From contig CM060731.1 of the NCBI GenBank assembly GCA_030704615.1, positions 59,334,001 through 59,398,000 of the forward strand: a stretch of 64,000 nt of DNA, written 5' to 3'. The position numbers were made by a program, and so were the translations under genes. Source of the stretch: Takakia lepidozioides. Its lineage: Eukaryota; Plantae; Bryophyta. Under the pieces are notes generated by a model, which was not told the DNA's origin, made no database searches, and was given only the letters and a program-made list of their open reading frames with translations. Positions 14,338 to 38,220 of the stretch are shown here, piece after piece. Positions within the stretch are counted from its first letter, which is position 1, and every line of letters starts with the position of its first letter.

Positions 14338-17120
14338 TATAGCAACACATAAGTCGGGGCATCCTATTCATCCCACTTGATGATAGATGTTGCCACACAT
14401 TCAGCCATCTCCACATTGCCATGGATTCTGCAGGCACCAAGCAAGGCCTTCCACACCACAACATCTGGATTGATTCGCATTTTATTAATCAAGTACCCTG
14501 CCTCATGTAGTTATCCCGCACGTCCAGAAGGTCCACCATATATGCAGCCAAAGTGCTTTACTGGCAGGGTGACACCATGATGTTGACTCAGGGAATCGAA
14601 GTAGCGTCTTCCTTCATTCAGTAGGCCAGTGTGGCTGCATGCAGAGAGAACACATATAAAGGTGATACTGTCCAGCTTCAAGCCATTCTTTTGCATTCCT
14701 TCAAATAGTTGCAGGACCTCCCTATGACAACCATGTTGGGCATATCTTGCGATCATCGGATTCCACGACACCACATTTCATTCAGCCACATTGTCAAATA
14801 CTCCCTCAATGCACCCACATTTCGCATACATGTCCACCAGGGCAGTGTCCAGAATGACATTTGGTACAATTCCAGCTTTTATGATGTCACCACGCACCCT
14901 TTGCCCTTTTCCAGGGCTGCCAGGCTTGCACAAGCATTGCAAACGCACACAAACGTGATGTGGTCGGACTTCACCCCTTACCCATCATTTGCTCATAGGT
15001 CTCCAAGGCCTCCATCCCGCGCCCCTCCTGTGCATATCCTGCAAGCATGGCATTCCATGACACCAAATCTCGTTCAGCCATATTGTTGAACACTTCATCC
15101 GCATCCTTGATGCACCCACATTTGGCATACATGTCCACGAGGGTATTGTTCAGAATCACATCTGGTACAATTCCAGCTTTGGTGATGCAACATAGTGGCG
15201 CCAAAGCTCAAGGCAATGCACCACCGCCTTCATTTTTTTTCTCATGTGTAGGCCACTGTCACACCTCTTTGCCCTTTTCCAGGGCTGCCAGGCTTGCACA
15301 CGAACTGCAAACGCACACAAACGTGATGTGGCTTCACCCCTTCCCCCATCATTTGCTCATAGGTCTCCAAAGCCTCTATCCCACGCCCCTGCTGTGCATA
15401 CCCCTACAAGCATCGCGTTTCACGACACCACATCTCGTTCAGCCATGGTGTTGAAATTAACTCCCTTCGCATCCTTAATGCACCCACATTTGGCATACCT
15501 GTCCACCAAGGCAGTGTTCAGGATGACATTAGGTACAATTCCAGCTTTGCCGATGTCACCACGGACCTCTTTCCCCTTTTCCAGAGCTCCCAGGCTTACA
15601 CACGCATTGCAAACACAAACAAATGTGATGTGGTTGGGCTTCGCCCCTTCGCACAACATTTGCTCCTAGGTCTCCAAAGCCTCCATCCCGCACCCTTGTT
15701 GTGCATATCCTGCAATCATCGCACTCCACGACACCACATCTCGTTCAGCCGTACTGTCGAACACTCCCTTCATACATGTCCACAAGGGTATTGTTCTGAA
15801 TGACATTTTGTACAATTGCAGGTCTGACAATGTACCCACATTTGGCATACCTGTCCACCAGGGCAGTGTTCAGAATGACATCTAGTACAATTCCAGCTTT
15901 GCCGATGTCACCACGGACCTCTTTCCCCTTTTCCAGAGCTCCCAGGCTTGCACACGCATTGCAAACACAAACAAATGTGATGTGGTTGGGCTTCGCCCCT
16001 TCGCGCAACATTTGCTCTTAGATCTCCAAAGAGTCCATCCCGCACCCTTGCTATGCATATCCTGCAATCATCGCACTCCACGACACAACATCTCGTTCAG
16101 CCATACTGTCGAACACTCCCTTCATACATGTCCACAAGGGTATTGTTCTAATTGACATTTTGTACAATTGCAGGTCTGGCAATGCACCCACATTTGGCAT
16201 ACCTGTCCACCAGGGCAGTGTTCAGAATGACATGTAGTACAATTCCAGCTTTGCCGATGTCACCACGGACCTCTTTGCCCTCTTCCAGGGCTGCCAGGCT
16301 TGCACAGGCATTGCAAACGGAAACATTGGGGTTCACCCCTTCCCCCATCATTTGCTCATAGGTGTCCAAAGCCTCCATCCCGCGCCCTTGTTGAGCATAC
16401 ACTGCAGTCATCGCACTCCACGACACCAAATCTCGTTCAGCCATACTGTCAAACACTCCCTCCGCATCTTAAGGGCACCCACATTTTGCATACATGTCCA
16501 CGAGGGTATTGTTGACAATCACATCTGGTACTATTCATGCTTTTGCGATGCAACCATGCACCTCTTTGCCCTTTTCCAGGGCTTCTAGGCTTGCAAACGC
16601 ATAGACGTGATGTGGTCGGGCTTCACCCCTTCCACCATCATTTGCTCATAGGTCTCCAAAGCCTCCATCCCGTGCCCCTGCTGTGCATACCCTGCAAGCA
16701 TCGCGTTCCACAACACCACATTTCATTCAGCTATATTGTTGAACACTGCCTTTGCATCCTCGATGCTCCCACATTTGGCATACATGTCCCACGAGGGCAT
16801 TGTTCAGAATGACATCGGATATAATTCCAGCCCTGACAATGTCGCCATGGGCCTCTTTGCCCTTTTCCACAGCTGCCAAGCTTGCACACACATTGCAAAC
16901 GCAAACGAACGTGATGTGGTTGGGCTTCACCCCTTCCCCCATCATTTGCTCCTAGGTCTTCAAAGCCTCCACCCCACGTCCCTGCTGTGCATACCCTACA
17001 AGCATCGCGCTCCACGACACCACATCTCCTTCAGCCTGCATATTGTTGAAAACTGCCTTTGCATCTTTAATGCACCCACATTTGGCATTTGGGTTCACCC
17101 CTTCGCGCATCATTTGCTCA
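14338..17120 (-). pseudogene. PLS-class PPR gene with E domain (RNA-editing factor type), heavily frameshifted
   Basis: Repeated P-L-S triplets, then ...ITFICVLSACSHTGLLNEGRRYFDSLSQHHGV and WKALLGACRIHGNVEMAE (E1); many stops and internal tandem duplications. Confidence 0.92.
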
Positions 17121-18180
17121 CTCGCCTGTACCTCTGTTTACCAACTTTGAAAGTCTCGAGTCTGAGCCAAACGCCCAGGCCCTTTTGGGGCCTAGTTATT
17201 GGGCAAACCACACACAACAGGTTGATGCTTGTGTAAAGGGATTTCTAGAGGGTCTGGAAAACCTGGATCAATTGTTTATTCCAAGGTAAGTCTTACTACG
17301 GGCGTCGGCCCCTGACAAAGGTAGGTTCTGTCTCTTTGTGTTCCGCCTCAAACTGGGCGCGGAGTCAATGGCCACAAGGCTACGGCTCGCTCCAGCAGAT
17401 ACCGGCCGGGCTGACGAGGGCCCGTATCCTGCACCAAAGTACGGCCCCGGGGGTGCGGATACCAGGGCCGGAGGGCTCAAGTACCGTTGTCGTGGCATTT
17501 AAGGTAGTTACACCCAAATATGAGCAGGTCTTGAAATGGACCCCTATTTTTGGGCCATAAGGTGGGTTCATACACCCCTTAAATGGAGACACTGCATTCA
17601 ATGGGCTAGATTGGATGCACTTATGGGCATCCTCCTCTATATGTAGATTTGTTTCGTGACCATACCCGTACATAATAGTATACGATGTGTAACTAGATTA
17701 GGGCTGCATCTTAATAAAGTTGAGGTTTTGGTGTACACACGTTCTTAACTTAATTAACGTTGTATGAAGGCCCAAGTTGGTCAGATTTGCGGCAGCGTAG
17801 CTACGGCATGAGCCCAGCCCCGTGAGCCTGGGAGCTGAGCTCACGCTTCAAGGAAGCGTGAGCGGCACAAATCTGTTGGAGAAACAGGTCCTATAGGCGA
17901 GGATTGCAAGAAGAGGGCCTATTACCGTGGACAAAACAAAGGGGGCCACCATGCACCATGTCTGTAATGCCTGCACAAAAAGAGGAATATGAAAATATGG
18001 CAGAATTGAGCTCAGAATGATTGACACACTTTATTTCAATTCACAGATAGACGCTTACAATGAATGGCATGTGCATTTGCCCTGGTTCCGTGAACGAAAT
18101 GTATGTGTTTGTCCTAAATGCAAAGTCTTCACACGGTAACCTGGAAACCGTCGTGGGAAGCGGGCATGGCTCGTATGTGT

Positions 18181-21100
18181 TCAAAGAGAATTTGGCGGAG
18201 CCCTACGTAAGGTGTCCCGCTGCAGAAGGGTGATGACTTCTCCGTAGCCTAGTGTGGCTTGGTGAATGAATTGGTCTCTCTTACCGTCGCAACACATAAT
18301 TACAAGGTATATGTAATATTGATGCTTGCAGGGGACCCACTTCCCTCTCATGCCGAGAGCGTCCTCACGCATTGTTACAAAATCCGGACAAGTGCAAGTA
18401 GGGAAATTCCCCACGGTAACCTGATATTCTTTGCCATGAAGAATTGAGCCAATAGACAACACTATGTAAATCCGTCCATACCCCGGGGCAGGGACTTCGG
18501 TGATACGAGCCACCCGAGCTTGCAAAATTCTAGCCGATTCCATCTTGCATTCGTGATCTGCACCCGAAGCGACACGGCGCACTGTTTTTCCATCTCTTTT
18601 TGTTGGGTGGGAGTCGGCACCGGGTGGAGGCATTGCCGAAGCATGTGGCACATCTGTGCCGACAGTGCACAAGGGCACCACCCGGGATCGTGCAAGACAA
18701 AACCCTCCCTCCTCCAGCATGCTTATCTCGGTTGTTGATAGCGACGTCCCAAGTTTCACAGGCCAAATTGCGGGGGGAGGGGGTTTCATTATCACCGAAG
18801 GACGAACTGTTCCCTTGACGCATCGTGCCATATCGTCTGGGTAGAACCAGAACTTGTGGTCCTTTGACTCCCTACTATGATAAGGTCGGAACAACCCTGT
18901 GAATGTTGGAGCTGGAGTCCCCCTGGAGCCTTTGCATATTTTTTATTTGCATTTCTTGAAAGAGGGGGTCCGAATTGCCATGCAAGCAACTCTAGATCCT
19001 GGTGGGGTGCATTCTATATGCCACTCACTATCAATGCAATCAGATTCCTGCACCATGGCCACCACCTCCTCCAATGGGATTCCTGATGCTGTGCTTGCAT
19101 GTTCTGCACCTGCTCCACTGGAGGAGGACCCACCTGGGAAGGGGCTGGCACATGACTTAGTCTGCACTGGAGACACCTTTGGCACAGAGAAATTGACCCT
19201 GTCTGGGCGATAGGAATCTCCATCTGACCCTGGAAGAGTGTTCAATTTCCTTTTGCATGATCCAAATCTTTCCTCGCCTTCCAAATGAGGGAGCCTGGAT
19301 TGCAAAGGGGAGCCTTCAGTGCACCTGTTCAGAGCTCTGGCCATCTTCGATGGGTCTCCGGACCTAGTCGCAGCCCTTAGCATCAACAAAGTTGTACCGG
19401 GGCCCTTGCCTCCACCCCGTCCCATCAGAAAATTGCGGTACCTGGTTTATTGTGTAAGTGCCCGCACCATGTCATCAGCAGTGGCCACATACAAGTCACG
19501 ACCTGCTTTGGTAGATTGCTGCATCCAGGCGTTGTGAACAGTCTCCGCCAAATTACAGGATGGCATGTCGGCCAAGTCCTCCAAGGACATGTCCTGTAGG
19601 AGGCATTGCATGGAAATGTGAGGAACGAAAGGAAATGGAAGAGGTTCTACAAGCGACAATCCAAGAACCCCAAATGAAGAGGCATGATGCAAAATTTGTG
19701 ATTTTGGGATTCAAGAGGCTTACCGCCGTCATGAAAGCTCCCCACTGTCTATATCTGAAGTGCCAGAAAACCAACCAGTCCTCCAACTCCTTCAGGTGGA
19801 TACCAGTAGCAGCACCAGATGAGAACCACCAAGCCCGGATCGCTTGGTAAGTGCTCTCAGCTTCTCCCATTGAGGTGGCATTTTTGTACTTGAGACAGAG
19901 CCTTCTGTGCTCCAACTGAAGGTTAAGGCGAATGCAGCGCTTTGTATGACGTGCCAGAGATTGACTCCAATGGAAGAGGCATGTGCGCTCCTTATTTTCC
20001 ATTGGGACCTTAGGATCCCCCAAACCAAACACGCGCCGCACTGCATTGAAATTTGCCTGTGCACTATCAGCCATGAAGCCCGCAAAATTTGTGTTATGTA
20101 CTCCATTGAGCTGCATGACGGCCAGGAGCGAATTCCACATGAGCATCTGGGATTCAGTGTCCTCCGACTACATATCACAAATTGCTATTGAGAGCACACG
20201 CTGGTACGCTGGATCATACACATGGCACGCCATGGTTGTCCAACCCTTCACTCGTTTGCAGTGATCAAACATCAACCAACATTTAGCCAAATCTCCTCCA
20301 GGTTGCATTCGGCGGACAATGCTCACACCACTGCCTTCGCCCACAGCGGACATCTTGAACAAATACACCTTGGACGAGCCCTAGCCAGGGAAGATACTGT
20401 TTTGAATGAATTCATAGCGACTTCTCCGTTTGAGGTCCATAATGTTGTCCATGAATCCAGCAGTGCCTGTGCCGACTCTGAGTGCATTCACCTGGTTTCG
20501 AATATTGGGAGAGCTCAACACGGAGAAATGGTCCATCACTGCATCAAGCGAATCTGCATCCAGCATTGGTTGTGTCGAATCCCCTTCACCCAGTATGTGT
20601 TTTTCCAGGAAAGCCTTGCTAGCTGCAAACGCTATAGCAGAAGGTGTTGCACAAGGGGCATTGTGGAACTCCTGCTTCAGCAGATTTCTAACGATGTCCA
20701 CGCTATCCCTGCAACTTCCTTTGGACACAGGATGCTCGTGTGCACCCATATGAATGCAGGCACGAGTCATTGTCTTACATCGGTGTGCCACCTGGTACAT
20801 ACGAGCGTGGCACACAGAAACACAGGACGGGGAAAGTTTGCAGAACCTGCACACAAAAGTATTGGTCTTGGGAGGGGCAAGTCCTGGGGTGAAAGGATTC
20901 AGGGGCACACCTTCCCACTCACTTTCGTTTGGTTGAGCGCTGTTTTTCAGGCAAGGGCAAGAAATATTCAGGCACTTGCAATGCCCAACGCAAACCGACC
21001 TTCGAAATTTCAATCCAATGTCGTTGTGGATGTTTGACATTTTTGTCCTGCACCAAGGGTGTCCGTCATGTTTCTTGTCCATGCCCTGCAGAAGCCCAGC

Positions 21101-21735
21101 CAGTCCATTGGAAGACGTGGGAGGGTTGAGCTCAAACAAGATGTCCCCATCAAACTCTGCTGGCACGTATTGAACCCGCTGCACACGAAGGGACTCCCAA
21201 TCAACAAAACGCAGCTCGCTCTTGCACCCAGGCACCCCTGCGAGGGCTTTCAATTTTGGAATGACACTCGTTATCTCTTGCAATTCGGATTCATCCAAGA
21301 ATGGAGTCTGCACTGATAGAGGAATCTCTGAAACATCCTCCGAGGACGAGTCTGAAAAGTCATGAATGTGCTCACCTCTTGTTTCACATGAACTGTGCCC
21401 TTTTGCTGCACGACCGATGCTGCAGTTCCAGGGGTAGTGACTGATCCTGCTGATTGTCTTCTCTCTTTTCCAAGGACACGGTATGTGCCTGGAAGGACTC
21501 TCCACTTCCTTCCACACTCGCCAACCAATGGTTTCTCCAAGTGTCCAGAATCCAAATTCCCATCCTCGTCATACACCTCTTTTTGAACAAGCAGAGAACC
21601 CAATTCCAGTGGGAACACTGTAACCAGCTCATCCTCATGAACAACTGCAAACCCATCGTCGTCTGCAGTGGCAATCAGTGGAAGACTACCTGCATTGGAA
21701 TGAAATCGGGCGAGTCTATCTCGCTCCCTCGACAT
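18181..21735 (-). pseudogene. MULE-type DDE transposase with Cys/His-rich (GCM/WRKY-like) N-terminal domain and C-terminal SWIM zinc finger
   Basis: WLMFDH...; FMADSAQANFNAVRRVF...CLFHW (D and CxxH); CNLAETVHNAW (E); SWIM YQVTVGNFPTCTCPDF...PCKHQYY; split by in-frame stops (20381, 20168, 19447), frameshifts and a probable short intron near 19590-19720. Confidence 0.9.
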
Positions 21736-22698
21736 GTTTTCCTACGTTGACCGAAAGTTGCGATTCAGAATGGAATCCCTGAACTGACAGCCCGCAATTC
21801 TCGAAAGGGGATCCACCACAAAAAAATTGAGGTCAACAAGGGTAGCACTAACCCAAAGGCTACGGGCGATGCATCAAAAGGATGTAGGAATGACATGCAC
21901 TGAACTTCGCAGACAACCACGCTGAGAGACACCAACTAGAAAAATTGTTTTCAAATACAAGAAGCCACAAGAAGCCGTGCTGTTTTTGGATGCAAAACAA
22001 ACCCTGAACATGACATGAAACCATTCTTTCTGGAAAGACGGCAACAACCCTGGAGAGCAGTAAACAGGAAGACCCCGAATGTAATGAGGTTGTGCCGTGC
22101 CAGAAGAGCACAACAGAAACACTGACACTCCAAGAGTCACCTCGCACGGATGTGTGCAACACAAGATCATTTCCGACACAACCCTTTATACCGAATGACC
22201 CCATGGCGACGATGACGGCAAAATGCAAAGCACAGGGTAGGTAGTACGACACACGTGGATGCATATGTGAAGCACAACATTTATGGCGAATCTGCAAGAA
22301 CTGCTCCAAATTGAACTAGCATTAGATTTCTACGGCACTTCCGAATTTGAAACAATGCAAGAAGGCCGCCATGTATTGGCAGGCGTCGAAGTACATCTGA
22401 CATATATCACAAGTACATGCAACGGATGTACATATTTTCTAGCACTTTATTTCTTGAATAATACAAAGACGCCGAAATGGATGAATTCCGTTCGCACACA
22501 ATAACAACACCCGCATCCAAATACGGTTGACAATGTCCAATTTTGATTTTGGTTACATGCAATAGCAACCCTTGTTGCAAACGTCAAACTGGAGAGCTCT
22601 AGAGGCATCGTGGGGAGCCCTTGTTTCCAGCGGAGGAGGAAGAGAAGGAAGTCATTATACTTCACGAGCTCTAGAAACAGGAATAGAGCCAGATATAG

Positions 22699-25600
22699 AA
22701 TGAGGATGGAAAGAGTGGCCGAAGAGGAAAAGGCGGAAGAAGAGGGCAAAGAGGAAAGTATGGCGATGGAAGAGCAGGAATCCGGAGAAGAACAGCAGCC
22801 ATAGTTCCAAGAACAGATGAGGAGGACACTGCATCCGAGGGAGAGGCAGACGCCGAAGATGATGTTGATGCTGGCCTCACGAAGAACCTCATAGTGGAAG
22901 AGAGGATGGGGGAGATGCTCCAGAACATGCGATGCGTGGAGAGCAGTCCGAAGCGCAAAGGGTCCCCGGCGATTGGGGAGTCTTCTAGAGCAGCCAAAAA
23001 AAAAGTACAATCTTTGAAACCCACCTTTGTGCTTCATTGCTGATGTGAACCCAAGTTGAGATTCTATTTCGATATGAACATAGTCTACACACGGCATCTC
23101 TGCCAGGTTGCATCAACCGCGAACAAGAAGCTCAAACAGTGTGCGTTGACGCACACTGTTTGAGCCTTCCATTTTGCTTGCTTGTTGATGTGCCAAACGG
23201 CCAAATTGGGGAACTAGGGCAAGTTCAATCCACCACGAATTGGAAGCTCAAACAGTGTGCGTTGACGCACACTGTTTGAGACCCGCATTTTACTTGGTTG
23301 ATGGTGTACAAAACGGCCAGATAGGGCCACTATGCCCGGTTCAATCCTCCACTATTTGGAAGCTCAACGCACACTGTTTGAGCCCCCCTTATCATTGTTC
23401 TTCTCACAAAAAAATTACCCAGCCAGGGTATCTCTTTGAGGTTCAATCATCAATTTCCTGGTAGCTCCAGCAGTATGCGTCAACGCACACTGTTTGAGCT
23501 CACCTTGTCATTGTTTTTTTCGTTTCAGAATCGGCCACACAGGGCGTGTCTCTGAGGATCAATGAACACTTACCTGGTAGCTCAAAAAGTGTGCGTTGGC
23601 GCACACTGTTTGAGCCCACCTTCTCATTGATTTTTCATCTGAAAATTGGCCACAAACGGCATGTATTTGAGGATCAATCATCACTTACATGGCAGCTCAA
23701 ACAGTGTGCGTCAACGCACACTGTTTGAGCTCACCTTGTCATTGCCTTTTTCGTTTGGAAATCGGCCACATAGGGCATGTCTCTGAGGATCAATGAACAC
23801 TTATCTGGCAGCTCAAACAGTGTGCATTGGCGCACACTGTTTGAGCTCACATTCTCATTATTTTATCATCTGAGAAAAGGCCACAAAGGGCATGTATTTG
23901 AGGATCAATCATCACATTTCTGGCAGCTCAAACAGTGTGCGTCAACGCACACTGTTTGAGCTCACCTTGTCATTGTCTTTGTCATCTGAAAATCGGCCAC
24001 ATAAGGTATGTATTTGAGGATCAATCATCACTTACCTGGCAGCTCAAACAGTGTGCGTCAACGCACACTGTTTGAGCCCACCTTGTCACTGTTTTTTTCC
24101 TGTGAAATTCGGCAATACAGGGCATGTCTCTGAGGATCAATGAACACTTACCTGGCAGCTCAAACAGTGTGCGTCAACGCACACTGTTTGAGCTCACCTT
24201 TTCTTTGTTTTTTTCATCTGAAAATCGGCCACTAAGGGCTTGTCTTTGAGGTTCAATGAACACTTACCTGGCAGCTCAAACAATGTGCGTCAACGCACAC
24301 TGTTTGAGCCCACCTTGTCATTGTTTTTTTCTTGTGAAATTCGGCATCATGGGGCATGTCTTTGAGGTTCAATGCACACTTACCAGGCAGCTCAAACAGT
24401 GTGCATCAACGCACACTATTTGAGCCCACCTTGTCATTGCTTTTTTTCATTTGAATAGGGCCAAATATCATGTTCAAAACACTTGAATTTGGAAGTTGAA
24501 ACATTGTGCGGCAATGCACGGTGTTTTCGGCCCCCACAATGCTTGTTTTCTGGTGCGAAATTTGGCCACACATGGCCTGTCTTCCATGCTCAAACACCAT
24601 CGTTTCATGCCTCACTCTTATATCAATTTGAATGAACAACCCTGCAGGAGAAGATGCAAAGTGTGGCGGAGAAGATCCCTTCGGGGCAGGGGAAGGAGAT
24701 CATTGCTGATGTGGACGATGAGTTCTATGAAAGCAAAGCCGCTGAGATGCTGGGGGGTCAGAAGGTAAACTCTCAGCTTGTGGTGCAAAGTATGCTTGCC
24801 CCGGGTGGGAGGTTGAAGATTCCCCTGTGTAGGATGGTTTCCATGCCCGTCGTTCGTCCACCCCTCATCAAGGACATTCTCAAGCTGGAGGCCGAGTTTG
24901 TTCATGGGTATTTGGATGGATCCGCAGTGTTTTACGTTTGTACTAGGGATTCCAGAGGCAATGAGCTCCTTGTGGATGAGTCAATCGTGGACTCCTGGGA
25001 TCCCATTTGGAGACAGGTGAACGAATCCTTCGAACTTCTTCTCTCCAGGAAACCTTCCACCCAGGCATTCTCAGGGAAGATGTTTCACGTTTGGGATGGG
25101 AACCACCGGTTGCTTGCATGGATGGCTGTCATTGGGAGGCTGCACTCACAGGAGGAAGAGTGGCATTACTCTGTTCGATCGATGGTGCTGGATTGTGAGG
25201 AGAACATGATGGGTCTTCTGACGGCAATGAATGATGTGAACAGGTTGGTTTCTCATTCTACATGTTCCACTTGTAGTTCCGTGGTTCTTTGATTAAAGTC
25301 CTCGAATTTCATTCTGACTTTCAGATATCATTCTGCAGAGGGACGGAGACATCGCATGTCAAAACGAGTCTGGTTCACACACTGTATAGGATACAAAGGA
25401 TCGGGCAGATGCCCTTGACCAACTTCAAGACCATCCTTTCAGCAGAGACGTACAAGAAGTGCGAAAGCTCCAAGACATCGGAAACGTGGTACTCGTTGAC
25501 ACGTGAGGCTTTCATGGAGTACATGTACATGGTGAGATACATCTTCCTTCATCTGCCCTTTCCATATTCCTGCTTCCACATGTTTGTTTCTGTTTGTTTC

Positions 25601-28362
25601 CCTTGCCCTTGGGTTGATGCAACTCTCGTGCATTCCCTTGCAGCAAGACATTGCAGATGCAGGGGAGCGTGGCAAACTGGAATACTACAGGTCAACCCCT
25701 GAGGAGAGAAGGACAACAAAGGGGGTTGAGGGTCACATCCAGAAAGAGATGACCGCTACAAGAAGGACTATAATGAGTGCTTTTGTGAAGCAGTTGAGAA
25801 TTTCCGACCCATCATTCGGATCGCAGTTTCTCCTGGAGATAAAAAAACCATTATAACAAGCCAGGCAAGCCAGAGATGGCCCAGGAGAAGTTGCACAGGT
25901 TGTCTACCGCCGTTGTGTCTTCAGAACAGAAGGTGAAGTGGCTACAGATATGGAACTCCGATCCCACAGTTAGGGATACCCACATGTTCCCCAGGCCGGA
26001 GAAAGAGAAGAAGACCCAGCGTGTCATTCTTGTCAGTGACAATGTGCTGGACACATGGCTTCACAAGGCCACTTACTGGAGCCAGGTGTGATGTCCTTTC
26101 TTGTGTCACTTTCTTTTCTCTTTTCCTGTCCTTCTCTTTCCATTGCCTCTCACATTCGCTGTGATTGTTTTTGGGTTCATTCTGCATTTGAATTGTTTTG
26201 CAGTTGGAAGAAAGGGCATGGTCGGTTCTGCATACTCAGCTGGCTGACTATGGCATCACTATGACAGCACCGAAGGTCTCCTTCGAAGCATACATGAGGA
26301 AATGGAGAGCCACAGTGTCGCACTCTTGTTTCTTTAGAGAGTTCAGCAAGGAGGGTGGCATCAGTCGAACACATGACCTTGACCAGCAAGAAAAAAGAAA
26401 GGAAGCCTGGAAACGATGCCTTTACAGGTGCACACCCTGGGCCGTTCAGGCTACTAAGTGTGCTGTGGTTGCAATGTACTGTGACGCATATAGTTTAAGG
26501 GGGTCTTCCTGGTGTGATGGAAAAGCTGAGAGACAATAATTGCATTGCATAATGAGGCTCTCTGTTCCTGCATGTACATAAAGTTTGTTCTCATGGAAGA
26601 GAATTGCTTAGACAAACATCCAGATTTCGTGGACCTTTGGCTTGTCCCTGCTGGCAACCAGACCATGTTTACTACTGGGATCTTGCATGACTGGGGCCTA
26701 GACCATCTTTCTTCTTGTGGTTGGTATTTGGATTGCCCTCCTTCTGAGACCCCAGCTCCGGAGGTGTCTTTGAGGAGAGAGAATGAGCGTATTGCAGCCA
26801 CTGCCGCAGCAGCCGACCTCGACATTCATGAACGAAATTTGAGGACTCTTGCAGAGAAGGAGCCTCCCGCTCAGGATACCCCGGGTAGAGGTAGAAAGAC
26901 AAAGGGAAAAGATGTTGCTGGTGTTGTGGGGAAAGGAAGGGGTAGAGGGAAGGTGGCACAAGGGCAGGGAAGTGTTGCAGATATTGGCCAAGTGGTGCAT
27001 GTCCAGCAGACTCCACCACATGGTAGGGGATCCGTGAGAAAGAACAAGGGGGTGGTTGATCCCAAGGACCCGTACCATGCAGTGGAACATCCCACGAGGG
27101 TCATTCACCCTACCAGGTTGGAGATGGCCAACGTCGGATTCCTTGCCATGATGGAGTCCAAGAAATCTGATTACAAGGGCGAGCCATCACCAGTGTGGGA
27201 GAGGATTGTGGAGTTCCTCGGCACGATGCGTGTTCTCTTTTGCTTCTTCTCTGCTGTGGGCATGGATCGTTTCAATCCTCTTGAGTATTCCATTGTAATT
27301 TTGTTTGCAGGCTAAAATGACCAAATCCTGGGTGAACGGGAAGGAGAAGCAATATGCAGCCGAACTCATAATCTTGGACATCCCTGATGGGTTGGCAGTC
27401 CCGGATGTCCCTCCATCGGGTGCTTGTCCGGGTTGGAATGCTTTTGATGAGCGCTACTGGCGGTGGGTTTTCTCCTTTTGCAATTTTTTCCTGTCCGATG
27501 CAGGTGTTTTGGTGCTCATACAGTCCACCAACGTTCGCTGTCGACGTGCACTTGCCAGCTATTTGAAAGCCTCGGGCATGAGAGTCGTGAAGAAATGGAA
27601 TTGTGTGAACAACATGTACCTTACGAAGGGGGATCGTCCGGGAGAGATGGTAAATTTGCCTTCTTCTTCCTCTTCTTGGTGGTTCTCGGATGGAGTTGTA
27701 TAGGTCGTTCGAACTCATATGTAGGGGCCTGATTTTTGAAGCTTCTTAGTTCCTTGTGGATGTGCTGTTCGCAGACTCGTTTGTTTGAAGCTGTTTGTCT
27801 CGTCCGAGTGCATCCACCAACGACTCCGGCCGGCATTGCGGAGTTCGCCATCACTCATGGGGGCAAGTTCATAGACGACAGGACATTTCCTCCCACGGAT
27901 GACATGCACCACAACTACGTCGACAACAACATTTGCTTGCGAAGGGGGAATGGGGTTCCTTGGAGAGGGGCGAGGGAGAGGAGCCCGGCTTTCATTCAAA
28001 CGATTGTGGAGTGTTGCACCTACACAGACGCCAGAGTTCTGGATTTGTCAATGGGCACAGGTTCGTCTCTTCAACATTCACATTTCATGAGGTTTGATTG
28101 AGCTTGCACTTTCAGCACTTCCCACCGTTCCAAATGTGTCTTCAATGTCTGCTTCCTTCATTCTATTCCACTGCGGGTGCTTTGTACCACGCTTGCAAGG
28201 CCAGTGCGCGACATCTCTTTGGGATTGAAGGGGATGCTGAGATTTACAAGAACCTCCTGATGGGTTTGGGTGGACACACTTATCAAGTCCTTCCGAAGCC
28301 CCGTCCCGCTGATATTGATACAAAGGAGACTTCCGACAAGGAGCTGGACTCCGACTTTGCCT
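22699..28362 (+). pseudogene. Multi-exon ParB/Srx-like domain plus beta-class N6-adenine/N4-cytosine DNA methyltransferase fusion
   Basis: Predicted exons: 22699-23004, 24648-25243, 25339-25531, 25644-26085, 26204-about 27230, 27311-27649, 27775-28060, 28177-28362. Motifs: ParB VWDGNHRLLAW (VWDGNHR at 25089-25109); motif IV-like LIILDIPDG (DIPD at 27377-27388); FLSDAGVLVL; motif X/I ERSPAFIQTIVECCTYTDARVLDLSMGT|GALYHACKASARHLFGIEGD. Lesions: frameshifts near 25845 and 26530, and acceptor AG>GG at 28175. Confidence 0.8.
23130..24530. repeat. Tandem array of 36-bp palindromes with 116-bp period
   Basis: GCTCAAACAGTGTGCGT(CA/TG)ACGCACACTGTTTGAGC at 23130, 23246, 23362 (half deleted), 23464, 23580, 23695, 23811, 23926, 24042, 24158, 24274, 24390, plus a degenerate copy at about 24495. 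Confidence 0.97.
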
Positions 28363-29711
28363 GTGAGTAAGTTCAACCTGTGGATGCTTGCATTGTTGTT
28401 TCAATATCAAGAATCACTGTTCTTGAGGCAAAGTTCACATGGCAGACATCCTTTTCGTTGGACTTGTGTATTGCATATTGTGTTCTGAATGGGTTTTTGT
28501 CGACATGTGCAGGAGTCCGCATGCTTCCACTTACCCTCCAGGGCTATCACACCTATTTGGACTTCTTTCCAGTCCTCCTCAGTCTTGCGTGCTACCTGTC
28601 TATGCGGAGGCACTCGCAGCAAGCATGACCGTTCATGGCACTCGGAGTCCACCCATCGACGGCCGTGGTAGAAGACGTGGTGTTGGGGCCAGAATCTTTG
28701 TGGATGACATAGCACAGGAGGTCGAGACTGATTCTGATGACTGTGACACTTGATATGAAGTTTTCTTTTGGTTTTATTCGGGGCCAAATTTGAAATGGGA
28801 TGGTTGTGTGTCCTTGTTGTCCTGTTTGCGATGTGTGCGTGGAATGCACATTAATGGGAACAAACTATTGTTGGAGATGGGGGTTGCATGGACTGCCCGG
28901 ATTGTTCCTTCAATCTATTTAGTGTTTTGTGGACCTCACAGACTTGAGTGCATTGCAAAAACAAACAAACGACTTTGGTTCGTGTACAACATTCTCGCAT
29001 CATTTGCTTGTTGGTCTCCAAACCAATCCTGCTAGAAGAATGGTTGGTGAATCCATCACGGTGAAGTCCACCTCATCAAAGAGCGTTCAGGCATTCTCAA
29101 ATCTAATAAGCATCCATGATGCTCCCGCACATACCTGGCATGTTCGCAAGGGTGGTGAGTAAGAAAAGATTTCGCAGGGATCCGCTTTAGATCATGTCAG
29201 TGTGCACCTCCTCACGACGTACCCTCATAAACTTGTGAGGGCTTAGTATGTTGATAACGTCTGCATGGATGCAATGGATACAATGGATGTAACATATCCA
29301 CTCTGCATTCCCGGGAAATGGCTGATCAACCCGCGGAAATAGGTGACACCCACGGAAATAGGCCCTGTATGTATGCTGACGTGGCGTGAGCCTGTGCTGG
29401 GCTCACGGTTTCCTGGGCTCACAAGCTCACGCCTCCAGGCTCACGGAATAGCACCCCCCGATTTGCGGCGATGTAATTTTCATTCAGTGCTGGGCGGCTG
29501 CTCACATTCAAATTCATAGGGGGCATTTGAAACTCGCGCTGAAAATTATGAATCATCTCTAATCTACGCAGCCCCCTCATGGATCGTGCACTGTAGTTAG
29601 GGAGATATGTGTATCGTGGATCAGTTTAGGCTTAGTGCAAACTTAAGATAGTTGCTAGTTTAGTTGCTAGGATTCAAATCAGAGGAGAGACGTGTGTTTG
29701 TTGCAGTACCC

Positions 29712-31261
29712 ATGGACCAAGAATTTAGGCCTTCCCAAGCTTTCTGATTGCTGCCAAACACTGAGGTAGTTGATGAGGGTGACAACACAGTAGAGATTGA
29801 CAGCCAAGCTAGTGACTCTGATCGTGCATACAATGAGCGTTGTGAACATGCAACAAATGAAGGCAGTCAAAGTGAAAATGAGAGTGATCAATATTATCAA
29901 TGGGGCCAAAGGCAGGATTCCAATGTTGAATTTCAAGTTGGTCATGGATCTACAGAAGAGTTTCCACCTGAAGTGGTGATCGAAACAACTACACATGCAA
30001 CAAAAGGACCATCAGATCCAGCTGATTTCAATGTGGAGGGTAATGAAGACGTTCATGCTAGGACGGGAGGGCGACCAAGAAGAGGACCGCGTCCACATAA
30101 AAACGGGAACTAGACTGATGTGCAGCTCCAAGAAACCATGGCAGCTGTTGATCGTGGGGACGACATCAAATCTGCGGCACGGATGTTTGGGGTACCTGCA
30201 ACTAGTCTACGAAACCATTGGTATGGAGTTACTACGACAAGGAAGAGAGGTAGCAAGGGAACGCTAGATGCCAAGGAGGAGGATGAACTAGTGAAGTATA
30301 TTGAAAAAATGCAAGATATTGGTCACCCATTGACACTGACCCAACTCCGTCTCAAGGTAGTAGAACTTACTCAAGAACGGCTCACACCTTTCACACAAGG
30401 GATCCCTCTTGAGAGTGGAAGGGCTAAGGGACTATGTCCTAAAAATGTTCAAACATTCTACGCTAACTTGACAGAAATGTACAACAAGCATAACTATGGG
30501 GTTGACAGGATCTGGAATTGCGACGAGTCAGGGGGCCAAGCTGGGCAAAATGGAGGTGCTGTTGTGCTTGCCAAGGTTGGTTCAAGAGCTGTCCATTCGA
30601 TAACGCCAGATCAACGAGAATGGTTGAGTGTCCTTACATGCATGAACGTTGCAGGAAGTTATATTCCGAATTACTACATTTTCAAAGGTAAAAGATTTCG
30701 TCGCAATTACATTCACAAATGCGAATCTGGTGCTACAATGGCAATGCAAAAGAAGGCATGGATGACAACAATATTATTTCACAAATGGATCTCTCATTTC
30801 TTGGAGTCAGCAAATGCAATGGGCAATGAGATCTCGGTCACAAATAGGCACTTGCTGATCTTGGATGGTCATAACTCGCATGTCACTATAGATGTTGTCA
30901 AACAAGCTACATTAGTAGGACTGGACGTGACTACTCTTCATTCCCACACTTCCCATGCACTCCAGCCTCTTGATGTGGTTGTGTTTAAGCCATTCAAGAC
31001 AACTTTCCGGAAGTACAGAGATGTATGGACCATGGCTCACAAGGGGAGAGGAGCTCTCAAGGAAGATCTGGCCCAATGGGTCTCACTCGCCTTGAAGAAG
31101 GGGCTAACCAACCACAACATTGCAAAGGGGTTCAAGACTACAGGCATTTGGCCACTCAATTCTGAAGCTATGGTGGGAAAGATGGGCCCATCTGAGTGTT
31201 TCTCAAACCAAACAGAAGAGCAGACAGGTCTGCACAGCATGCATCCTACCACTCCAGAACC
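29712..31261 (+). pseudogene. pogo-like transposase (HTH plus DDE_1), 5' part
   Basis: IKSAARMFGVPATSLRNH (HTH), IWNCDESG, LLILDGHNSH, TSHALQPLDVVVFKPFK; stop at 30111-30113; apparent deletion in the CENP-B-type HTH; interrupted by E3. Confidence 0.93.
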
Positions 31262-31914
31262 AGGGGATGCTATTCTGTGAGCAGATCCCGTGAGCAGAAA
31301 TCTGCTCACACTTCAGGATCTGCCCACCTATAACCGCGGACGCCTACTCGACTTAGAAGACCTATTACTGCGCATATTGGCCAGTATTACAAGCTCAGTT
31401 ATGGATGCTGCTGGGATGAATGAGGGATGAATGGCGGATGAATGTCTGTATGATGAATGAGACATGGATGAATGAAATAATACAAAGTTGTTTTGTAGTA
31501 GTAGCTCCGAAATCCCCCGAGCTCCGAAATCCTTTAAACCATGCTAGTCTTGCTTGCAAATCAATTGTGAAAGTGCAGTGTATATTGCCTCCACATTGCT
31601 TTGTGGATTGAGGAGGGGTTACTTGTCATTTTTCCAGATATCCAAGGTTGAGAGAAATGCTCACACCCAAATCTAAAGAAGGCAGAGAGGTGAGGAATTA
31701 AGATGTCGTTGACAACACCTTAATCCCCAGCACCTGCACACACACCGCCTTATCGTCGAGTGCAGCTATGGTGTGAGCCTAGCCGCGTGAGCCCAAGAGC
31801 TCGGCTCACGCTTTGCCCTCTAAGCGTGAGCCCAGGGGTTTAGTGGAGGAAGAAGCAGGCCCCATACCCGAGTCCTCTGTTTAGAGAGGGTCCTATTGTC
31901 GTGGAAGCAGTTAT

Positions 31915-33240
31915 AGCGCTTAAAAAAAGAGGTATAGAAAAAATGGAATGGTCATTGTGAAACTTACTGTGGCTTTCTTATTGAAGAAGAGGTGAAAAAA
32001 AAAGGCTGGGTGAGTCATCATGAATCTTATATAGGGATTCTTGCATGAACAAGAGGCAAGAAAAGTTTGGATGCTCATTGTCAAGCTATCTGACGTTTCC
32101 AATATTTCATCCATGGTGGATGGATGATGGATGGATGAAATATTGAAGGAGAGGTTAAAAATAATGAGGATGGGCAAGAACATGCCCCAAAATATGATCC
32201 CTCATTGTGAAACAGGCAATGGTTTTTGTTAATGTAGATGAGGTGAAAATTAAACAGATGGTCATCTTCAAGCTTATTTAGGCTTTATTTGTAAAGAAGA
32301 TGTGTAACAAAATGAGCGGTTTATTGTGGAACTTGTTCAGGTTTGTGTTATTGAAGATGAGTGGTCATTGTGATTGCTTATTTAGGGTGTGTTTGTGAAG
32401 AAGAGGTAAAAAAAAAAACATTGAGCTATCCTTGTGAAACTTGTTTAGGATTCTGTTATTGAAGAAGAGGTGAAAAAAAAAGTTAAGCTCTATCATTGTC
32501 AAACTTGTTCAAGTTTCTGTTATTGAAGAAGAGGTGAAAAAAGAAATCAGATGGTCATTATGAATGTTTATTTAGGGTTTGTTTGTGAAGAATAAATTGA
32601 GCTCTCATTCTCAAACTTGTTAAGGTTTCTGTTATTGAAGAAGAGGTGAAAAAAATATTAGATGGTCATCATGAATGCTTATTTAGGGTTTGTTTGTGAA
32701 GAAGAGGTGAAAAAAAAAACCAGATGGTCATCATGAATGCTTATTTAGGGAATAAATTAGGGATTGTTTGTGAAGAAGAGATGAAAAAAAAACTTGAGCT
32801 CTACCATTGTCAAACTTCTTCAGGTTTCTGTTATTGAAGAAGAGGTGAAAAAAATTGAGCTCTATCATTGTCAATCTTGTTCAGGTTTCTATTGATGAAA
32901 AAGAAGTGAATAAAAAATTAGATGTCATCATGAATAAATTAGGGTTTGTTTGTGAAGAAGAGGTGAAAAAAAAACTTGAGCTCTATCATTGTCAAACTTC
33001 TTCAGGTTTCTGTTTATTGAAGAAGAGGTGAAAAAAAAAACATATGGTCATCATGAATGCTTATTTAGGGTTTGTTTGTATAGAGGACGTGGAAAACAAA
33101 TGAGCTGTCATTGTGAAACTTGTTCAGGTGCCTGTTATTCAAGAAGAAGTGGAAAAAAAAACAGATGGTCATCATGAAGCTCATTTACGCAATGCTTCTG
33201 TAGAGGCCGTGAAAAAGTAAAATGAGCTTTCATACTGACA
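31915..33240. repeat. A-rich tandem repeat of about 60 bp with two alternating subtypes, inside E2
   Basis: GAAGAAGAGGTGAAAAAAA followed by either ..GATGGTCATCATGAATGCTTATTTAGGG.. or ..GAGCTCTATCATTGTCAAACTTGTTCAGG.. Confidence 0.85.
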
Positions 33241-33491
33241 TTTGTCCATGTTTGGCAGGCCCTCGAACAATTTTTTTTTTTTTTTTTTTTTTTTTTGGCC
33301 CGGGGCAATATTGGGGGTGGGGACAGAAGTGGACTCAATTTTAGAAGCTCGTTAACCAAACCCGATGAAAAAATAAACTATATTTCATAACGAGACATCG
33401 TCTGCTTGTCCAGATTTAAGAACTGTGTATACATGTTCTACAAACAAGGCAGCCCTTTCTGGCATTGCGAAAAATCGCAACATATGCAACA

Positions 33492-34030
33492 CTACTCGAT
33501 ATTGCCAATGTCTCGCTGCAAAAGTGTCCGTACCTCACCAGGACCTAGTGTCGCCTGGTGAATGATTTGGTCTCTTTTGGGATCACAATACATCCTGCGC
33601 AAAAAGATGTAGTAAAGATGCTTGCAGGGAATCCATTTCCCTCTCTTTCCTAGAGCTTCCTCACGCATGCACACGAAGTCGGGACAGGTATACCCCGGAA
33701 AATTTCCCACCGTCACCTGATAGGTCTTGTCGTGCAAAACAGACCCAGATGTGAAGTATAAACCCGTCCATACCCCAGGTGAAGGTACTTCCATAGTTCC
33801 TGTTACCCGAGCCTGAAGTAGTCTGGCCGATTCCACCTTCGCATCGTGATCAGGCCCCGAAGCCACCTCATGCACTGTTTTGCCATGCCTTCTTGTGGGA
33901 TGCGAAGTATCGTCTGGAAGAAGCACCATAGCAGCAAGGCCACCAAGAGTCGACGCCACAGATCGGTGCAGACGAAAGCCGGCGTCCTTCAACTTGCCCA
34001 TCTCTAGTTCCTCAATGATCATCCTGAAAT
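33492..34030 (-). pseudogene. C-terminal (SWIM) remnant of the E2 transposase
   Basis: YQVTVGNFPGYTCPDFVCMREEALGKRGKWIPCKHLYYIF; clearly homologous to, but diverged from, 18181..18894. Confidence 0.92.
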
Positions 34031-34044
34031 CATGATCATGAAAA

Positions 34045-34499
34045 AATTGAGTGTGTTGACGCACTCAGTTCTCGGGGGGGGGGGGGGGGGTTTGGTTTCC
34101 CCCAAAACCCGCCCGGTACCCGAGGTGAAAATCCGGACCCGCACCTGTCGTCGATGATCATGAAGAAATTGAGTGCGTTGACGCACTCAGTTCTCCCGGG
34201 GGGGGGGAGGAGAGGGAACCAATTTATTATTATTATTAATTTATTTGGTTATCATACAATCTGTCACGATGAGATGTCGCCGGGAGCTGGCAAGCTACTT
34301 GAAAGCCTCGGGGATGCGGATTATCAAGACCTAGAACTGTATCAACAGCCTATATCTGACAAAGGGGGATTGCCCAGGGCAGAAGGTGGGTTTCAAATAC
34401 TTCGTTTTTATGCCTTCTCTGTTGAAGTTCCACTGTACTGACTGTTATGAAGTCATGTTGTTCGCACTGCCTGAATTGAGTGCTTCAGCGCACTCAGTT
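34045..34499. repeat. E2 palindromes
   Basis: AATTGAGTG(C/T)GT-TG-ACGCACTCAGTT at 34045-34070 and 34167-34192; degenerate third copy at 34474-34499, inside a predicted MTase intron. Confidence 0.85.
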
Positions 34500-35175
34500 A
34501 TGGCGGTGCATGAGCAATGACTTTGAACCAGTTCCATCCAGAATGGGTCTGCACTCCCACCCAGATGTGCTATGAAACATTCCTCACTAATTATTGTCCT
34601 CTTCATCGCAGACCCGTCTATTTGAGGCCGTCTGTCTCGTGAGGGTACATCCACTGTCGACTTCCACCACAGTGGTGGAGTTCGAGCTTCGGATGATGTT
34701 TCATAAACGAGAGGTTCGATCATGTCGTCGACGACACGCACTACAACTATGTCGACTCCAACGTATGTTTGCGAAAGCCAAATAAAACGCCTTGGAGAGG
34801 GGCCTGTGAAAAAAACCCGGCTTTTATCCAAACGATCATTGAGAGTTGTTCTCGGCCAGGGGCCCGCATCATAGATCTCACTCTCGGCACATGTTTTTCT
34901 TCTTGCCTTTGTCATCGATTTCTTTTCTTCTGCACCTTCTTTACTCAATATTCTAAAACTCTAATTCCTTCAATTTGTCTCTTGCAGGCGCTTCTTACCA
35001 TGCTTGCAAGGCAGATGGCAGACACTTGTTTGATATGGAAGGAGATGGAGATATTTTCAGTGGCCTCCTCGCCGAGTTGCAAGGGCCCGCATCTACCTCC
35101 AATGTCAAGGATGTCACTGCGCAAATTGATATCCTCAACGGTGACGACAAAGACCTGGACAATGACTTTAATGTG
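34240..35175 (+). pseudogene. C-terminal remnant of the E2 methyltransferase
   Basis: ELASYLKASGMRIIKT*NCINSLYLTKGD | TRLFEAVCLVRVHP ... PWRGACEKNPAFIQTIIESCSRPGARIIDLTLGT | GASYHACKADGRHLFDMEGD; same intron positions as in E1. Confidence 0.88.
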
Positions 35176-36286
35176 AGTAAGTTCATTTTCTGTCTATTTG
35201 ATCCCTGTGTATATGCTCTGTCGCGTCCCCTTCTGTTGTCTGATTGTTACCCAAATGGTGCATTTCTGATTGCAGGAATGTGAACGCACTCCCGTGGCCC
35301 CTGTCTTCTATATACTTGAGGGACTTGTGCTGGAGCCCACCTCCTAATTATGTCCTTATCGATTAAGACATTGCTCGTGTGCAAGCAGCTGTGCTTTCTC
35401 CCCTACCTTTGCGTTGGAGTTCCAGGAAGACGCTCAGGCACCTCTTCATAGATGATAGTACAGCAGTTTCAGGTGGTAGCAGTACTTCTAGCAGTTCAGC
35501 AGATTCAGGTGGTAGCAGTAGCAGTGTTGATACCACCTACGGATGTACTTGAGGGCATTCATTTATGGAACATGAGGGGACACACTCTCCGTTTTCCGTT
35601 GCATCACCATTTCTCTTCCCACCATCCGTTGTAATGAGCACGGACTACAATGAAATTCACATCCCTGAATTGAAACATTCTCTCCCCCGCGTCCTGCGAA
35701 TTTGAAAGTGTTTTCATTCTAATCATTACTCTCAAATTCAACAGTGTGCATTCAATAAAAGTTTTTCAACAGAGATGAATATGTGCATAGTCCAGTAGAC
35801 AGTCATTCGACATATGCCATCACACCAATATTTGGTTGGATGGATGGAGGATGAATGTTTTTGGATGGATGAACCCCGATTGGATGTACACTGTGGATGA
35901 ATGTTGCATGCATGGATGGTCCCATGGATGATGTCAGTGCGCAGTATCATGCACAGGGCCGGGATGGCGAGTTTCACTGTCGGGGTTGAGGTGGGTCCCT
36001 AAGGCTAACAAGGGTTAGGGTTTCTGTTTGGGGTTGCAGGGTTAATATGGATAAAGACGTGTTTCTGCGGTAATGGATCCTCTTCCATGGAAATAGACGC
36101 CGCATCTTTCCCCAAAATCATGCCACGTGTCCTGGGCTCACGCCAGGCTCCTGGGCTCCCGTGGCTAGGCTCACACTCTAGCATCCCCCCCTTACCGCCA
36201 AGGCTTGTTCACCACGAGAGTTTTTGGGGTGAATTTTTTTGGGGTTTTTGATTTTTCCATGAATTGTCATATGCCAACTCGTACTG

Positions 36287-37174
36287 GGAATTAAGATGTC
36301 GTTGACGACACCTTAATCCCCAGCACCTGCACACACACCGCCTTACCGCCAAGGCTTGTTCGCCATCAGATTTTTGTGGGTTGAAATTTTTTGGGTGAAT
36401 TTTTTTGGGGTTTTTGGTTTTTCCATGAATTGTCATGTGCCAACTCGTACCAGGAATTAAGATGTCGTTGACGACACCTTAATCCCCAGCACCTGCACAC
36501 ACACCGCCTTACCGCCAAGGCTTGTTCGCCATCAAATTTTTTTGGGTTGAAATTTTTTGGGTGAATTTTTTTGGGGTTTTTGGTTTTTCCATGAATTGTC
36601 ATGTGCCAACTCGTACCGGGAATTAAGATGTCGTTGACAACACCTTAATCCCCAACACCTGCACACACACCGCCTTACCGCCAAGGCTGTTCGCCATCAG
36701 ATTTTTTTGGGTTGAAATTTTTTGGGTGAAATTTTTTGGGGTTTTTGGTTTTTCCATGAATTGTCATGTGCCAACTTGTACTGGGAATTAAGATGTCATT
36801 GATGACACCTTAATCTGGCACATTCGGGGGAAAATATATATATATTTTTTTGTTTTGTTTTTTGAAAACTTGTTGGAATTAAGATGGCGTTGACGACACC
36901 TTAATCTGGCACATTCGGGAAAAAATAAATAAATAAATAAAATAAATTGAAAACTTGCTGGGAATTAAGATGTCGTTGACGACACCTTAATCCCCACCAC
37001 CTGCACACACACCGCCTTACTGCCAAGGTTTCTTCGCCTTGAAAGTTTTTTGGGTTGAAATTTTTTTGGTTAAAGTTTTTGGGAAAAAAAATTCGGGGAT
37101 TTTGGTTTTTCCGTAAGCTGTCATGTGCCAACTCGTACTGGGAATTAAGATGTTGTTGACGACACCTTAATCCC
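36287..37174. repeat. E3 tandem array of 34-bp palindromes (main period 166 bp)
   Basis: GGAATTAAGATGTCGT-TG-ACGACACCTTAATCCC at 36287, 36453, 36619, 36784, 36875, 36961 and 37141; an eighth copy at 31694 is separated from these by the E2 insertion. Confidence 0.95.
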
Positions 37175-37546
37175 GAGCACTTGCACACGCACCATGGTTC
37201 ATTCATGTCGCTCATCTTTCATCCAAAAGTCATCCAACATTCATCCATTCTTTTTTTCATTCATCTCAAAACCCTTCATCCGACAGCTTTTCATCGCACA
37301 TTCGTACCATATGGTCGTCACCCAGCAATGATTCTTCCGTCGGATGGGTTGGAGATTGCGTCCGTGCAGTGTAGTTTCTGTCCACGGCAATAGGCCATCT
37401 TCTTCCCTCGGTTGTAGGCTCCCATTCACTAATCTGCTCACGCTTACAATCTGCTCACGCTTAAGGGATTCTGATCACGTTTACCACTTAAAGCGTGAGC
37501 GTGCTCACGTGAACTTCTCACACGGTAGCTACCCTCCTCCAGAACC

Positions 37547-38220
37547 AGAGGAAGAAGGCCTGGTTTCAGAGCTTCACATGGAAGAGATATTGGGCACTTG
37601 TGTGTCGGATACAACTGAAGACCAACAACCACTACTTTGTGGTGGTTGACAATGAGGACGACCAAGTTCAACCCAATGACGTCGACGACGATGAAGAGGA
37701 GGCAATGGGGGTGAGTCAGGAGCCCATGGAGGTCGACGATGACTCCTCGCTGGTGGTAGGCCAACCATCCCTGCCAAGGCCAAGCTCAATCTCGCGTTTC
37801 CTTACGCTGCCAAAGGCACCTGCACATACAAACAGGAGGGTCAGATTGAATGCCAACGATCCCATCATAGACTATATCAAGTCAATAATCATGACCTTTG
37901 ATGTATATTTAGCATATTTGGAACAAAAAGCTAGACTAAAAGAGGAGGCCATTAAAGCTCGTGAGCGCAAGAAAGAGGAGGCCCTTGGAGCCAAAACCAA
38001 ACGTGCAGCAGAAAAAAAACATTGGAGCTGAGGCTAAGCGGGCCCGCGCTGAGGAACGTCATGCCAAGAAAGCCTTCGACATGTGCTGGTCAGCGAAGGT
38101 CTGTGTAGAGGCAAGGGATAAACTACATGCAGCCATAAAAAACAACATTCCATGGTTGTGGGAAGGAGGAGCAACATGGAGGGAGACTACCACGAAATGG
38201 CGGGAGGACAAGAGCTGTTG
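37547..38220 (+). pseudogene. pogo-like transposase, 3' part
   Basis: Continues the ORF after the E3 TSD; acidic tract, then IIDYIKSIIMT..YL and a K/E/R-rich coiled coil; frameshifted. Confidence 0.75.

Follow-up and report, generated by a model that had tools for sequence, protein, structure and literature searches.

Accessory genes for ParB-domain proteins have been described in transposons of two algae, and in the parts of both reports covered here the protein is proposed to bind and modify the element that encodes it. In the red alga Bostrychia, Plavaka elements carry tandem inverted-repeat arrays beside the ParB-domain accessory gene PAG3 (bioRxiv 10.1101/2025.02.11.637652), and in the brown alga Ectocarpus the element Sola1-1_Ec32 has an accessory gene with ParB-like and N4/N6 methyltransferase domains (PMC12477816). 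The target of such ParB-methylase accessory genes has been proposed and so far not shown. Tests of transposon-encoded anti-silencing systems are few, and VANC, carried by the Mutator-like VANDAL elements of Arabidopsis, is the main tested one as far as the covered parts of PMC5735166 go. Here we describe three Mutator-like transposable elements, E1, E2 and E3, which have ends in common and target-site duplications of ~10 bp, in a 64-kb stretch of the Takakia lepidozioides contig CM060731.1 (this whole stretch is referred to as the window). All three carry palindromes with the core CGT-(TG/CA)-ACG, and E1 also carries an accessory gene predicted to encode a ParB fold followed by a methyltransferase-like fold. 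Comparison with related loci indicates that the feature usually shared by the family is a pair of CG dinucleotides four bases apart (CG-N4-CG), a majority rule and not a law, set between arms that differ among subfamilies. The palindrome feature is real and probably functional, and on balance we lean towards reading the palindromes as putative parS-like operators for the element's own ParB-fold accessory protein, likely keeping elements of its own subfamily active.

The locus resembles PAG3/Plavaka in having a ParB-domain accessory gene with adjoining inverted-repeat arrays, and differs in that the latter has an EnSpm/Plavaka transposase and a ParB domain fused to a 2OG oxygenase; section 8 of that preprint gives neither a shared core nor an arm rule, and its supplements may describe the repeats. 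The likeness to Sola1-1_Ec32 extends to the accessory gene lying on the strand opposite to the transposase, the transposase there being of the Sola type, and a palindrome array is unmentioned in the covered parts of that report. The VANC motifs, in the covered parts of their report, are 8-9 bp and non-palindromic, unlike the sites in E1 to E3; the likeness to VANC/VANDAL is one of function by analogy without a claim of homology, the accessory protein here having predicted ParB and methylase folds. With ParB/parS, Noc/NBS and KorB/OB the locus shares the ParB N-domain fold, a GxxR-type motif, a loose match to the DNA-binding domain and clustered palindromic sites, whereas it differs from ParB/parS in that no ParA partner was seen and in its eukaryotic introns, its sites of 26-36 bp and its fused methylase-like domain. 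The beta-class amino-methyltransferases (CcrM, M1.HpyAVI, M.RsrI, rotifer N4CMT and Marchantia DN4MT1) are alike in fold and in the motif order IV...I but have DPPY/SPPY where D-x-P-x-G is found here, and PF01555 scores below its curated cut-off. Work by Iyer from 2011 is reportedly cited for similar proteins. A ParB-HTH-fused methylase family of a different structural group is given for chlorophytes and chytrids in the covered parts of Iyer 2016. A literature search by title and start of abstract, with most subscription papers outside its coverage, returned no description of these land-plant elements or of a CG-N4-CG rule. What is new is this rule together with a non-coding element that retains its array; the kind of system has already been sketched in print.

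Inside the window we found 11 full palindrome copies in E1, 3 in E2 and 8 in E3, at the places and with the arms and core described in a sequence-only reading of this DNA. The octamer CGTYRACG occurs 15 times in the window (13 of them within the arrays) against a mean of 0.76 and a maximum of 3 in 100 dinucleotide shuffles. From 23130 to 24425 the full copies of E1 follow one another every 115-116 bp, apart from a single 218-bp gap occupied by a half copy; a degenerate copy lies at 24495. The periods proposed for E2 and E3 need correction: the 122 bp of E2 is the single interval between its first two copies, the third being 307 bp farther on between two methylase-exon remnants, and the 166 bp of E3 covers three steps before the spacing turns irregular (166, 166, 165, 91, 86 and 180 bp for the copies at 36287, 36453, 36619, 36784, 36875, 36961 and 37141). 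E2 is inserted inside the array of E3, and therefore one E3 copy (31694) lies to the left of E2. The palindromes of E1 and E2 have GTG-CGT..ACG-CAC in common, which is more than the core. In all 22 full copies the centre is TG or CA, and in none CG or TA. The CGs flanking the centre are intact in 35 of 44 positions, and 8 of the 9 losses are changes of CG to TG/CA. Majority identity over the 11 units of E1 is 97% in the palindrome columns and 80% in the spacers (34 versus 80 columns). Thus, of the earlier suggestion of a required cis element, the constraint is borne out and the requirement is not, given the related loci without a palindrome counted below. The E3 palindrome is also present in further contigs with different flanks at a spacing of ~101 bp. 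A CRISPR-like reading of the arrays was ruled out because spacers within one array are homologous to each other.

A profile of the ParB exon matched 168 related stretches in metagenome contigs, and the best 80 of the 168 were used as related loci. The main palindrome scan, blind to the core sequence, took in at most 2.5 kb on the upstream side of the ParB exon and called for at least 9 of 10 arm pairs. It returned 59 strong palindromes in 31 loci, as against a mean of 2.15 and a maximum of 5 after 20 base shuffles. CG is present at both -4/-3 and +3/+4 in 31 of these 59 (18 loci), compared with 5 cases at -3, none from -5 to -9 and 1 at -10. On a looser scan CG-N4-CG was found in 40 of 109 palindromes upstream and in 9 of 181 in other places; all nine of the latter repeat the locus's own palindrome on the downstream side, in L033, L040 and L043. 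Most subfamilies have CGG-NN-CCG. Among the 21 hand-seeded, curated arrays in which 60% or more of the CGs are intact, 18 have G at position -2, 2 have C and 1 has T; their centres fall into 8 of 10 possible classes (AA/TT 6, AT 6, CA/TG 5, GA/TC 4, TA 3, AG/CT 2, CG 2, CC/GG 1). The strict CGTYRACG is present only 4 times in the 324,712 bases of the 80 loci, and one of these (CGT-TA-ACG in L001) lies in an upstream palindrome. Because the strict core is rare, -2 is mostly G and the relatives show eight centre classes, the CGT-(TG/CA)-ACG core of the window is a lineage trait, likely derived from CGTCGACG via decay of an unread centre, and the best reading of the TG/CA is that of a centre without protein contact which has decayed or flipped, and not that of a restriction-type GTYRAC site. 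The decayed arrays of L049 and L058/L059 fit the CGT core, the centre of L049 being still CG in 2 of 10 copies; in the tree these loci join E1 weakly (89/74), and the group also takes in CGG-type loci. Flipping of the centre, too, is suggested by reverse-complement centre pairs in 15 of the 20 arrays having at least two centre types (no null was computed for this count).

The divergent order of transposase, array and ParB gene seen in E1 is found again in L049, L061 and L069 and, judged from translation resemblance, in L025. In L025, L033, L040 and L043 the locus's own palindrome is also abundant 3′ of the first ParB exon (12 copies in L040), and these copies are likely intronic. A second palindrome type, with TCG-NN-CGA or GCT-YR-AGC centres, is interleaved with CG-N4-CG in L001, L030, L054, L056, L069, L072 and L075 and may be the site for another protein. 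No exact match of GTGCGTNNACGCAC was found in 82 loci, and none of the 21 pattern matches in viral contigs was a relative. The prokaryote genomes gave two loci, of which L082 is a 20-residue match and L081 has a 4-copy CGG-AT-CCG array; since its subfamily and offsets match those of L052, L081 probably represents plant DNA within a metagenome-assembled genome and does not count as an independent case.

Arm distance is weakly correlated with ParB tree distance (Mantel rho 0.26, p 0.0008, n=34 loci), the tree being that of the ParB exon and not of the DNA-binding region. At a ParB distance of 0.15-0.4 the arms are 0.60 identical, as against 0.40 for the 40-bp flanks and a shuffled baseline of 0.36, and beyond 0.4 the arm identity drops to 0.27-0.46. 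At the level of sequence this shows arms that are under constraint and subfamily-specific, as had been proposed. A role as subfamily address is plausible. It may be noted that the earlier proposal of arms co-evolving with the protein survives only as a correlation, because site and gene are inherited together on linked DNA and so share descent.

The ParB exon of E1 has 562 relatives at E<=0.001, the named ones being from Riccia sorocarpa and Adiantum and the closer ones from metagenome contigs. The exon went unrecognised in sequence searches against Pfam, PHROGs and PDB; the only PDB sequence match, eL24, is spurious. The structural models used are those of the Riccia relatives P0094 and P0157, and not of E1's own protein. 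The P0094 model has a pLDDT of ~90 over the N-domain, its top rows in three structure searches are of the ParB family, and it matches ParB, Noc and KorB, with a root-mean-square deviation (rmsd) of 2.5 A over 96 residues of the N-domain. Residues 166-536 of the same model give a loose alignment (rmsd 6-7 A, Z 8-9) over the entire length of truncated chains of ParB and Noc. The GxxR-type motif reads WDGNHR in 62 of the motif hits. From these models the accessory protein is predicted to have a ParB fold at its N-terminus and, after it, a helical stretch that superposes loosely on the ParB DNA-binding domain. A homodimer prediction for P0094 residues 150-630 scored 0.00 with its own fold uncertain and was used neither way. 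Residues 165-700 of P0156 weakly resemble clusters of fungal DUF3723 proteins in the Atlas (0.82), the leads for the ParB region all being below 0.9; DUF3723 we take to be Starship cargo. For the C-terminus a beta-class amino-methyltransferase fold is predicted, the P0157 model matching CcrM, M1.HpyAVI and M.RsrI (Foldseek E 1e-10 to CcrM). The beta-class motif order IV...I is found in this model and in the family profile, and the same motifs are present in the E1 exons. The catalytic motif [DNS]PP[YFW] is absent: in the alignment of the family profile, D-x-P-x-G stands opposite the DPPY of CcrM, the motif IV equivalents being DIPDG in E1 and DMPTG, DLPTG, DMPSG, DLPSG, DIPTG, DFPIG, DVPFG, DYPEN and DIPEN in relatives. 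Catalysis is doubtful because of this replacement, and we hold it rather unlikely that the protein is an active methyltransferase.

If the palindromes are parS-like operators, a dimer of the accessory protein would bind one palindrome, each subunit reading one half-site. The CG at -4/-3 would be the contact common to subfamilies and the outer arm would provide the specificity, and the central 2 bp would be unread, for which reason the centre could decay (CG to TG/CA) and flip. Loading of the protein at tandem sites in the promoter region between the divergent genes and in introns may then counter host silencing, by analogy with VANC for VANDAL, and E3 may borrow the transposase via its ends and the accessory protein via its array. 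The position of the arrays beside or within the accessory gene, the retention of the palindrome over the spacers and the fixed CG with a free centre all support this reading. Several observations weigh against it. Of the 40 loci having at least 600 bp of upstream sequence, 14 have no such palindrome, including L048 and L068 with more than 8 kb upstream, and other geometries occur in L001 and L030 (TCG-NN-CGA), in L054 and L075 (GCT-YR-AGC) and in L022. For the helix-turn-helix the match is a loose one, taken from a relative that shares 40% identity with E1 across 125 residues of the query. The observed/expected ratio of CpG is 0.54 in the E1 array and 0.53 in the window, and therefore there is no sign of lasting protection. 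Also, the loci are not independent, many being closely related and drawn from a small number of metagenomes, the curated seeds were partly chosen using the CG rule, and loci selected via the ParB exon leave a link of the array to ParB inseparable from a link to the transposase. A bolder form of the parS-like operator reading, which we regard as unlikely, is a diversified address code in seedless-plant Mutator elements, whereby a ParB-type clamp on CG-N4-CG would be directed by subfamily-naming arms, a fused non-canonical methylase would mark or shield the CG against host 5-methylcytosine (5mC), and non-coding elements such as E3 would be its parasites. If true, land plants would have an anti-silencing system that is programmable, nucleotide-gated and bacterial in origin.

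Among the alternatives, the one that survives best, though we think it quite unlikely, is that the accessory protein is an active methyltransferase for which the half-site CG or an adjacent base is the substrate, the mark blocking host 5mC so that the element stays on. The family invariant is indeed the CG pair, the fold is that of the beta class with the CcrM match given above, and the first D of motif IV is kept in E1 and the relatives compared, with N in the decayed L061, L062 and L076. Yet the motif reads D-[ILMVFY]-P-x-[GN], the aromatic residue being gone in E1 (DIPDG) and nearly all relatives. A D rather than an S in motif IV would point to adenine, although the site has no invariant adenine. 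In Marchantia, N4-methylcytosine (4mC) is written on CG with N4,5-dimethylcytosine (4,5mC) undetected, going by the covered part of the source, which would suit a mark on the CG, but of the 9 CGs lost in the window, 8 have changed in the manner of 5mC deamination. It is hardly likely, in our estimate, that the palindromes are instead bound by the N-terminal cysteine-rich domain of the transposase as an internal enhancer of transposition or transcription, the ParB gene being a mere neighbour. Here the retention of only ends and array in the non-coding E3 would fit, the array also adjoins the transposase gene, and a Mutator transposase can activate cognate copies according to the covered part of a 2026 preprint. 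However, copies lie 3′ of the first ParB exon or between methylase exons and far from the ends (L025, L033, L040, L043 and E2), the ends bear GTGAGC/GCTCAC repeats of their own, and the Plavaka arrays, in the covered parts of that preprint, accompany a ParB gene with a different transposase.

Little credence is given to the arrays being structural or neutral minisatellites, i.e. hairpin-prone DNA in which template switching restores the symmetry and slippage brings about the spread, without any protein reader. Template switching can perfect quasi-palindromes, and the reverse-complement centres in 15 of the 20 mixed arrays (again with no null computed) include the pairs AA/TT, GA/TC and AG/CT, which speak for inversion between the arms because deamination does not explain them; such an origin nevertheless leaves unexplained why arms that otherwise differ keep a hypermutable CG equally far from the centre, and why the position beside the accessory gene is constant. 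The proposal that the core is a restriction-modification-like GTYRAC target common to all subfamilies, although CGT-(TG/CA)-ACG is in all three window elements and the L001, L049 and L058/L059 sites agree with it, is refuted as a family rule by the single strict upstream palindrome in 80 loci, the predominance of G at -2 (18 of 21 curated arrays) and the eight centre classes, lack of the core in further subfamilies being what the earlier reading had itself named as refuting, and we hold its survival, as a lineage-specific target, very improbable.

As regards what the arrays may mean, the fact that the non-coding E3 keeps its array suggests that the array matters in cis. The sites follow a simple grammar of fixed CG pair, free centre and variable arms, and a panel of ~30 pairs of site and ParB exon is at hand; binding, specificity and methyl sensitivity are therefore directly testable. 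Should the protein act in trans, such proteins could form a naturally occurring family of sequence-specific epigenome editors. Scanned with Pfam, 84 of the 93 open stretches from ten long loci showed no other transposase, and therefore movement of the cassette between superfamilies is not shown here.

The features of the three elements are collected in Table 1.

Table 1. Coordinates of the elements E1 to E3 and of their parts within the window
Feature	Position	Strand	Basis or remark
E1, Mutator-like, structurally full, genes broken	17794..29459	+	end motifs, target-site duplication
E1 SWIM zinc-finger exon of transposase	18184..18600	-	PF04434 E 0.07, under cut-off; motif visible
E1 MULE-type DDE transposase, main exon(s)	19706..21705	-	59% identical to P0190 over 530 aa
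E1 palindrome array	23130..24530		11 full 36-bp copies, a half and a degenerate copy, between divergent genes
E1 accessory gene exon 1, predicted ParB/Srx-fold domain, WDGNHR motif	24654..25244	+	relatives and model of relative P0094
E1 accessory gene methyltransferase-like exons	27314..28059	+	DIPDG, motif IV equivalent; DLSMGT, motif I equivalent
E3, non-coding	31264..37536	-	~1.8 kb excluding E2; orientation opposite to E1
E3 palindrome copy left of E2	31694..31727		palindrome scan
E2, internally deleted, sister subfamily, nested in the E3 array	31758..36189	+	ends, duplication
E2 palindromes, three copies (34045, 34167, 34474)	34045..34499		palindrome scan
E3 palindrome array, seven copies	36287..37174		palindrome scan

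The window as a whole is eukaryotic DNA rich in repeats; its reading frames are short and tRNA genes are absent. An end-motif scan located three 5′ and three 3′ transposon ends in it. E1 has an exact 10-bp target-site duplication (17784-17793 / 29460-29469). Its transposase copy, which diverges on the minus strand from the multi-exon accessory gene, has two in-frame stops. The best Atlas matches of P0190 are MULE (Mutator-like element) clusters (0.95, 0.92 and 0.92), with PF10551 MULE in 61% of the members of the top cluster; the Pfam MULE model itself matched neither the E1 exons nor P0190, and a C-x-x-H following the second D is visible in the E1 transposase. E3, with a target-site duplication of 10-12 bp (31252-31263 / 37537-37548), has little beyond termini and array, in keeping with the earlier description, and a tblastx comparison with E1 gave no match, the sequence shared being one 29-bp end match only. 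E3 in turn splits a pogo-like DDE_1 transposase frame (E 5.5e-21; 30120-31280 and 37540-38100), which makes three levels of nesting. The 10-bp duplication of E2 has two C-to-T differences, and the duplications of all three elements fit the ~9-11 bp of Mutator-like transposons. Its coding leftovers are a SWIM remnant (33510-33893) and methylase remnants (34257-34891), 56-69% identical to E1 at the amino acid level. Different flanks at 31758 and 36191 in other contigs mark its boundaries, and E2-type elements of greater length exist, because other contigs continue into methylase exon sequence at 34248. A second tandem array in E2 (32300-33220) is AT-rich and strongly purine-skewed, with units of ~60-120 bp and without palindromes.

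The element ends consist of short inverted repeats, imperfect and accompanied by subterminal GTGAGC/GCTCAC repeats, and not of long terminal inverted repeats. Clusters of these repeats are present in all three elements (17794-17870, 29380-29459, 31264-31310, 31758-31835, 36130-36189 and 37430-37536), and being distinct from the arrays they are the likelier transposase sites. A hairpin is present at the 5′ end of E1 and of E2. In the public DNA run X1, 21,802 contigs match 22000-38000 (6,924 of them at >=99%); E1, E2 and E3 are multi-copy in public DNA runs, with depth, which is not copy number, spanning all three. Contigs of runs X1 and X3 jump from 22094 into the array (22094-23501), suggestive of deleted forms of E1 whose breakpoint lies in the array. 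Elsewhere in the window, dispersed tandem units of ~290-350 bp occur in both orientations (1-160, 10670-11670, 14800-17130 and 49080-50720), the scan showing no strong palindrome in them. An inverted repeat at 61089-63349 has 893-bp arms that are 98% identical and 475 bp apart, and its repeat recurs near 4500-5400 and 43300-44200.

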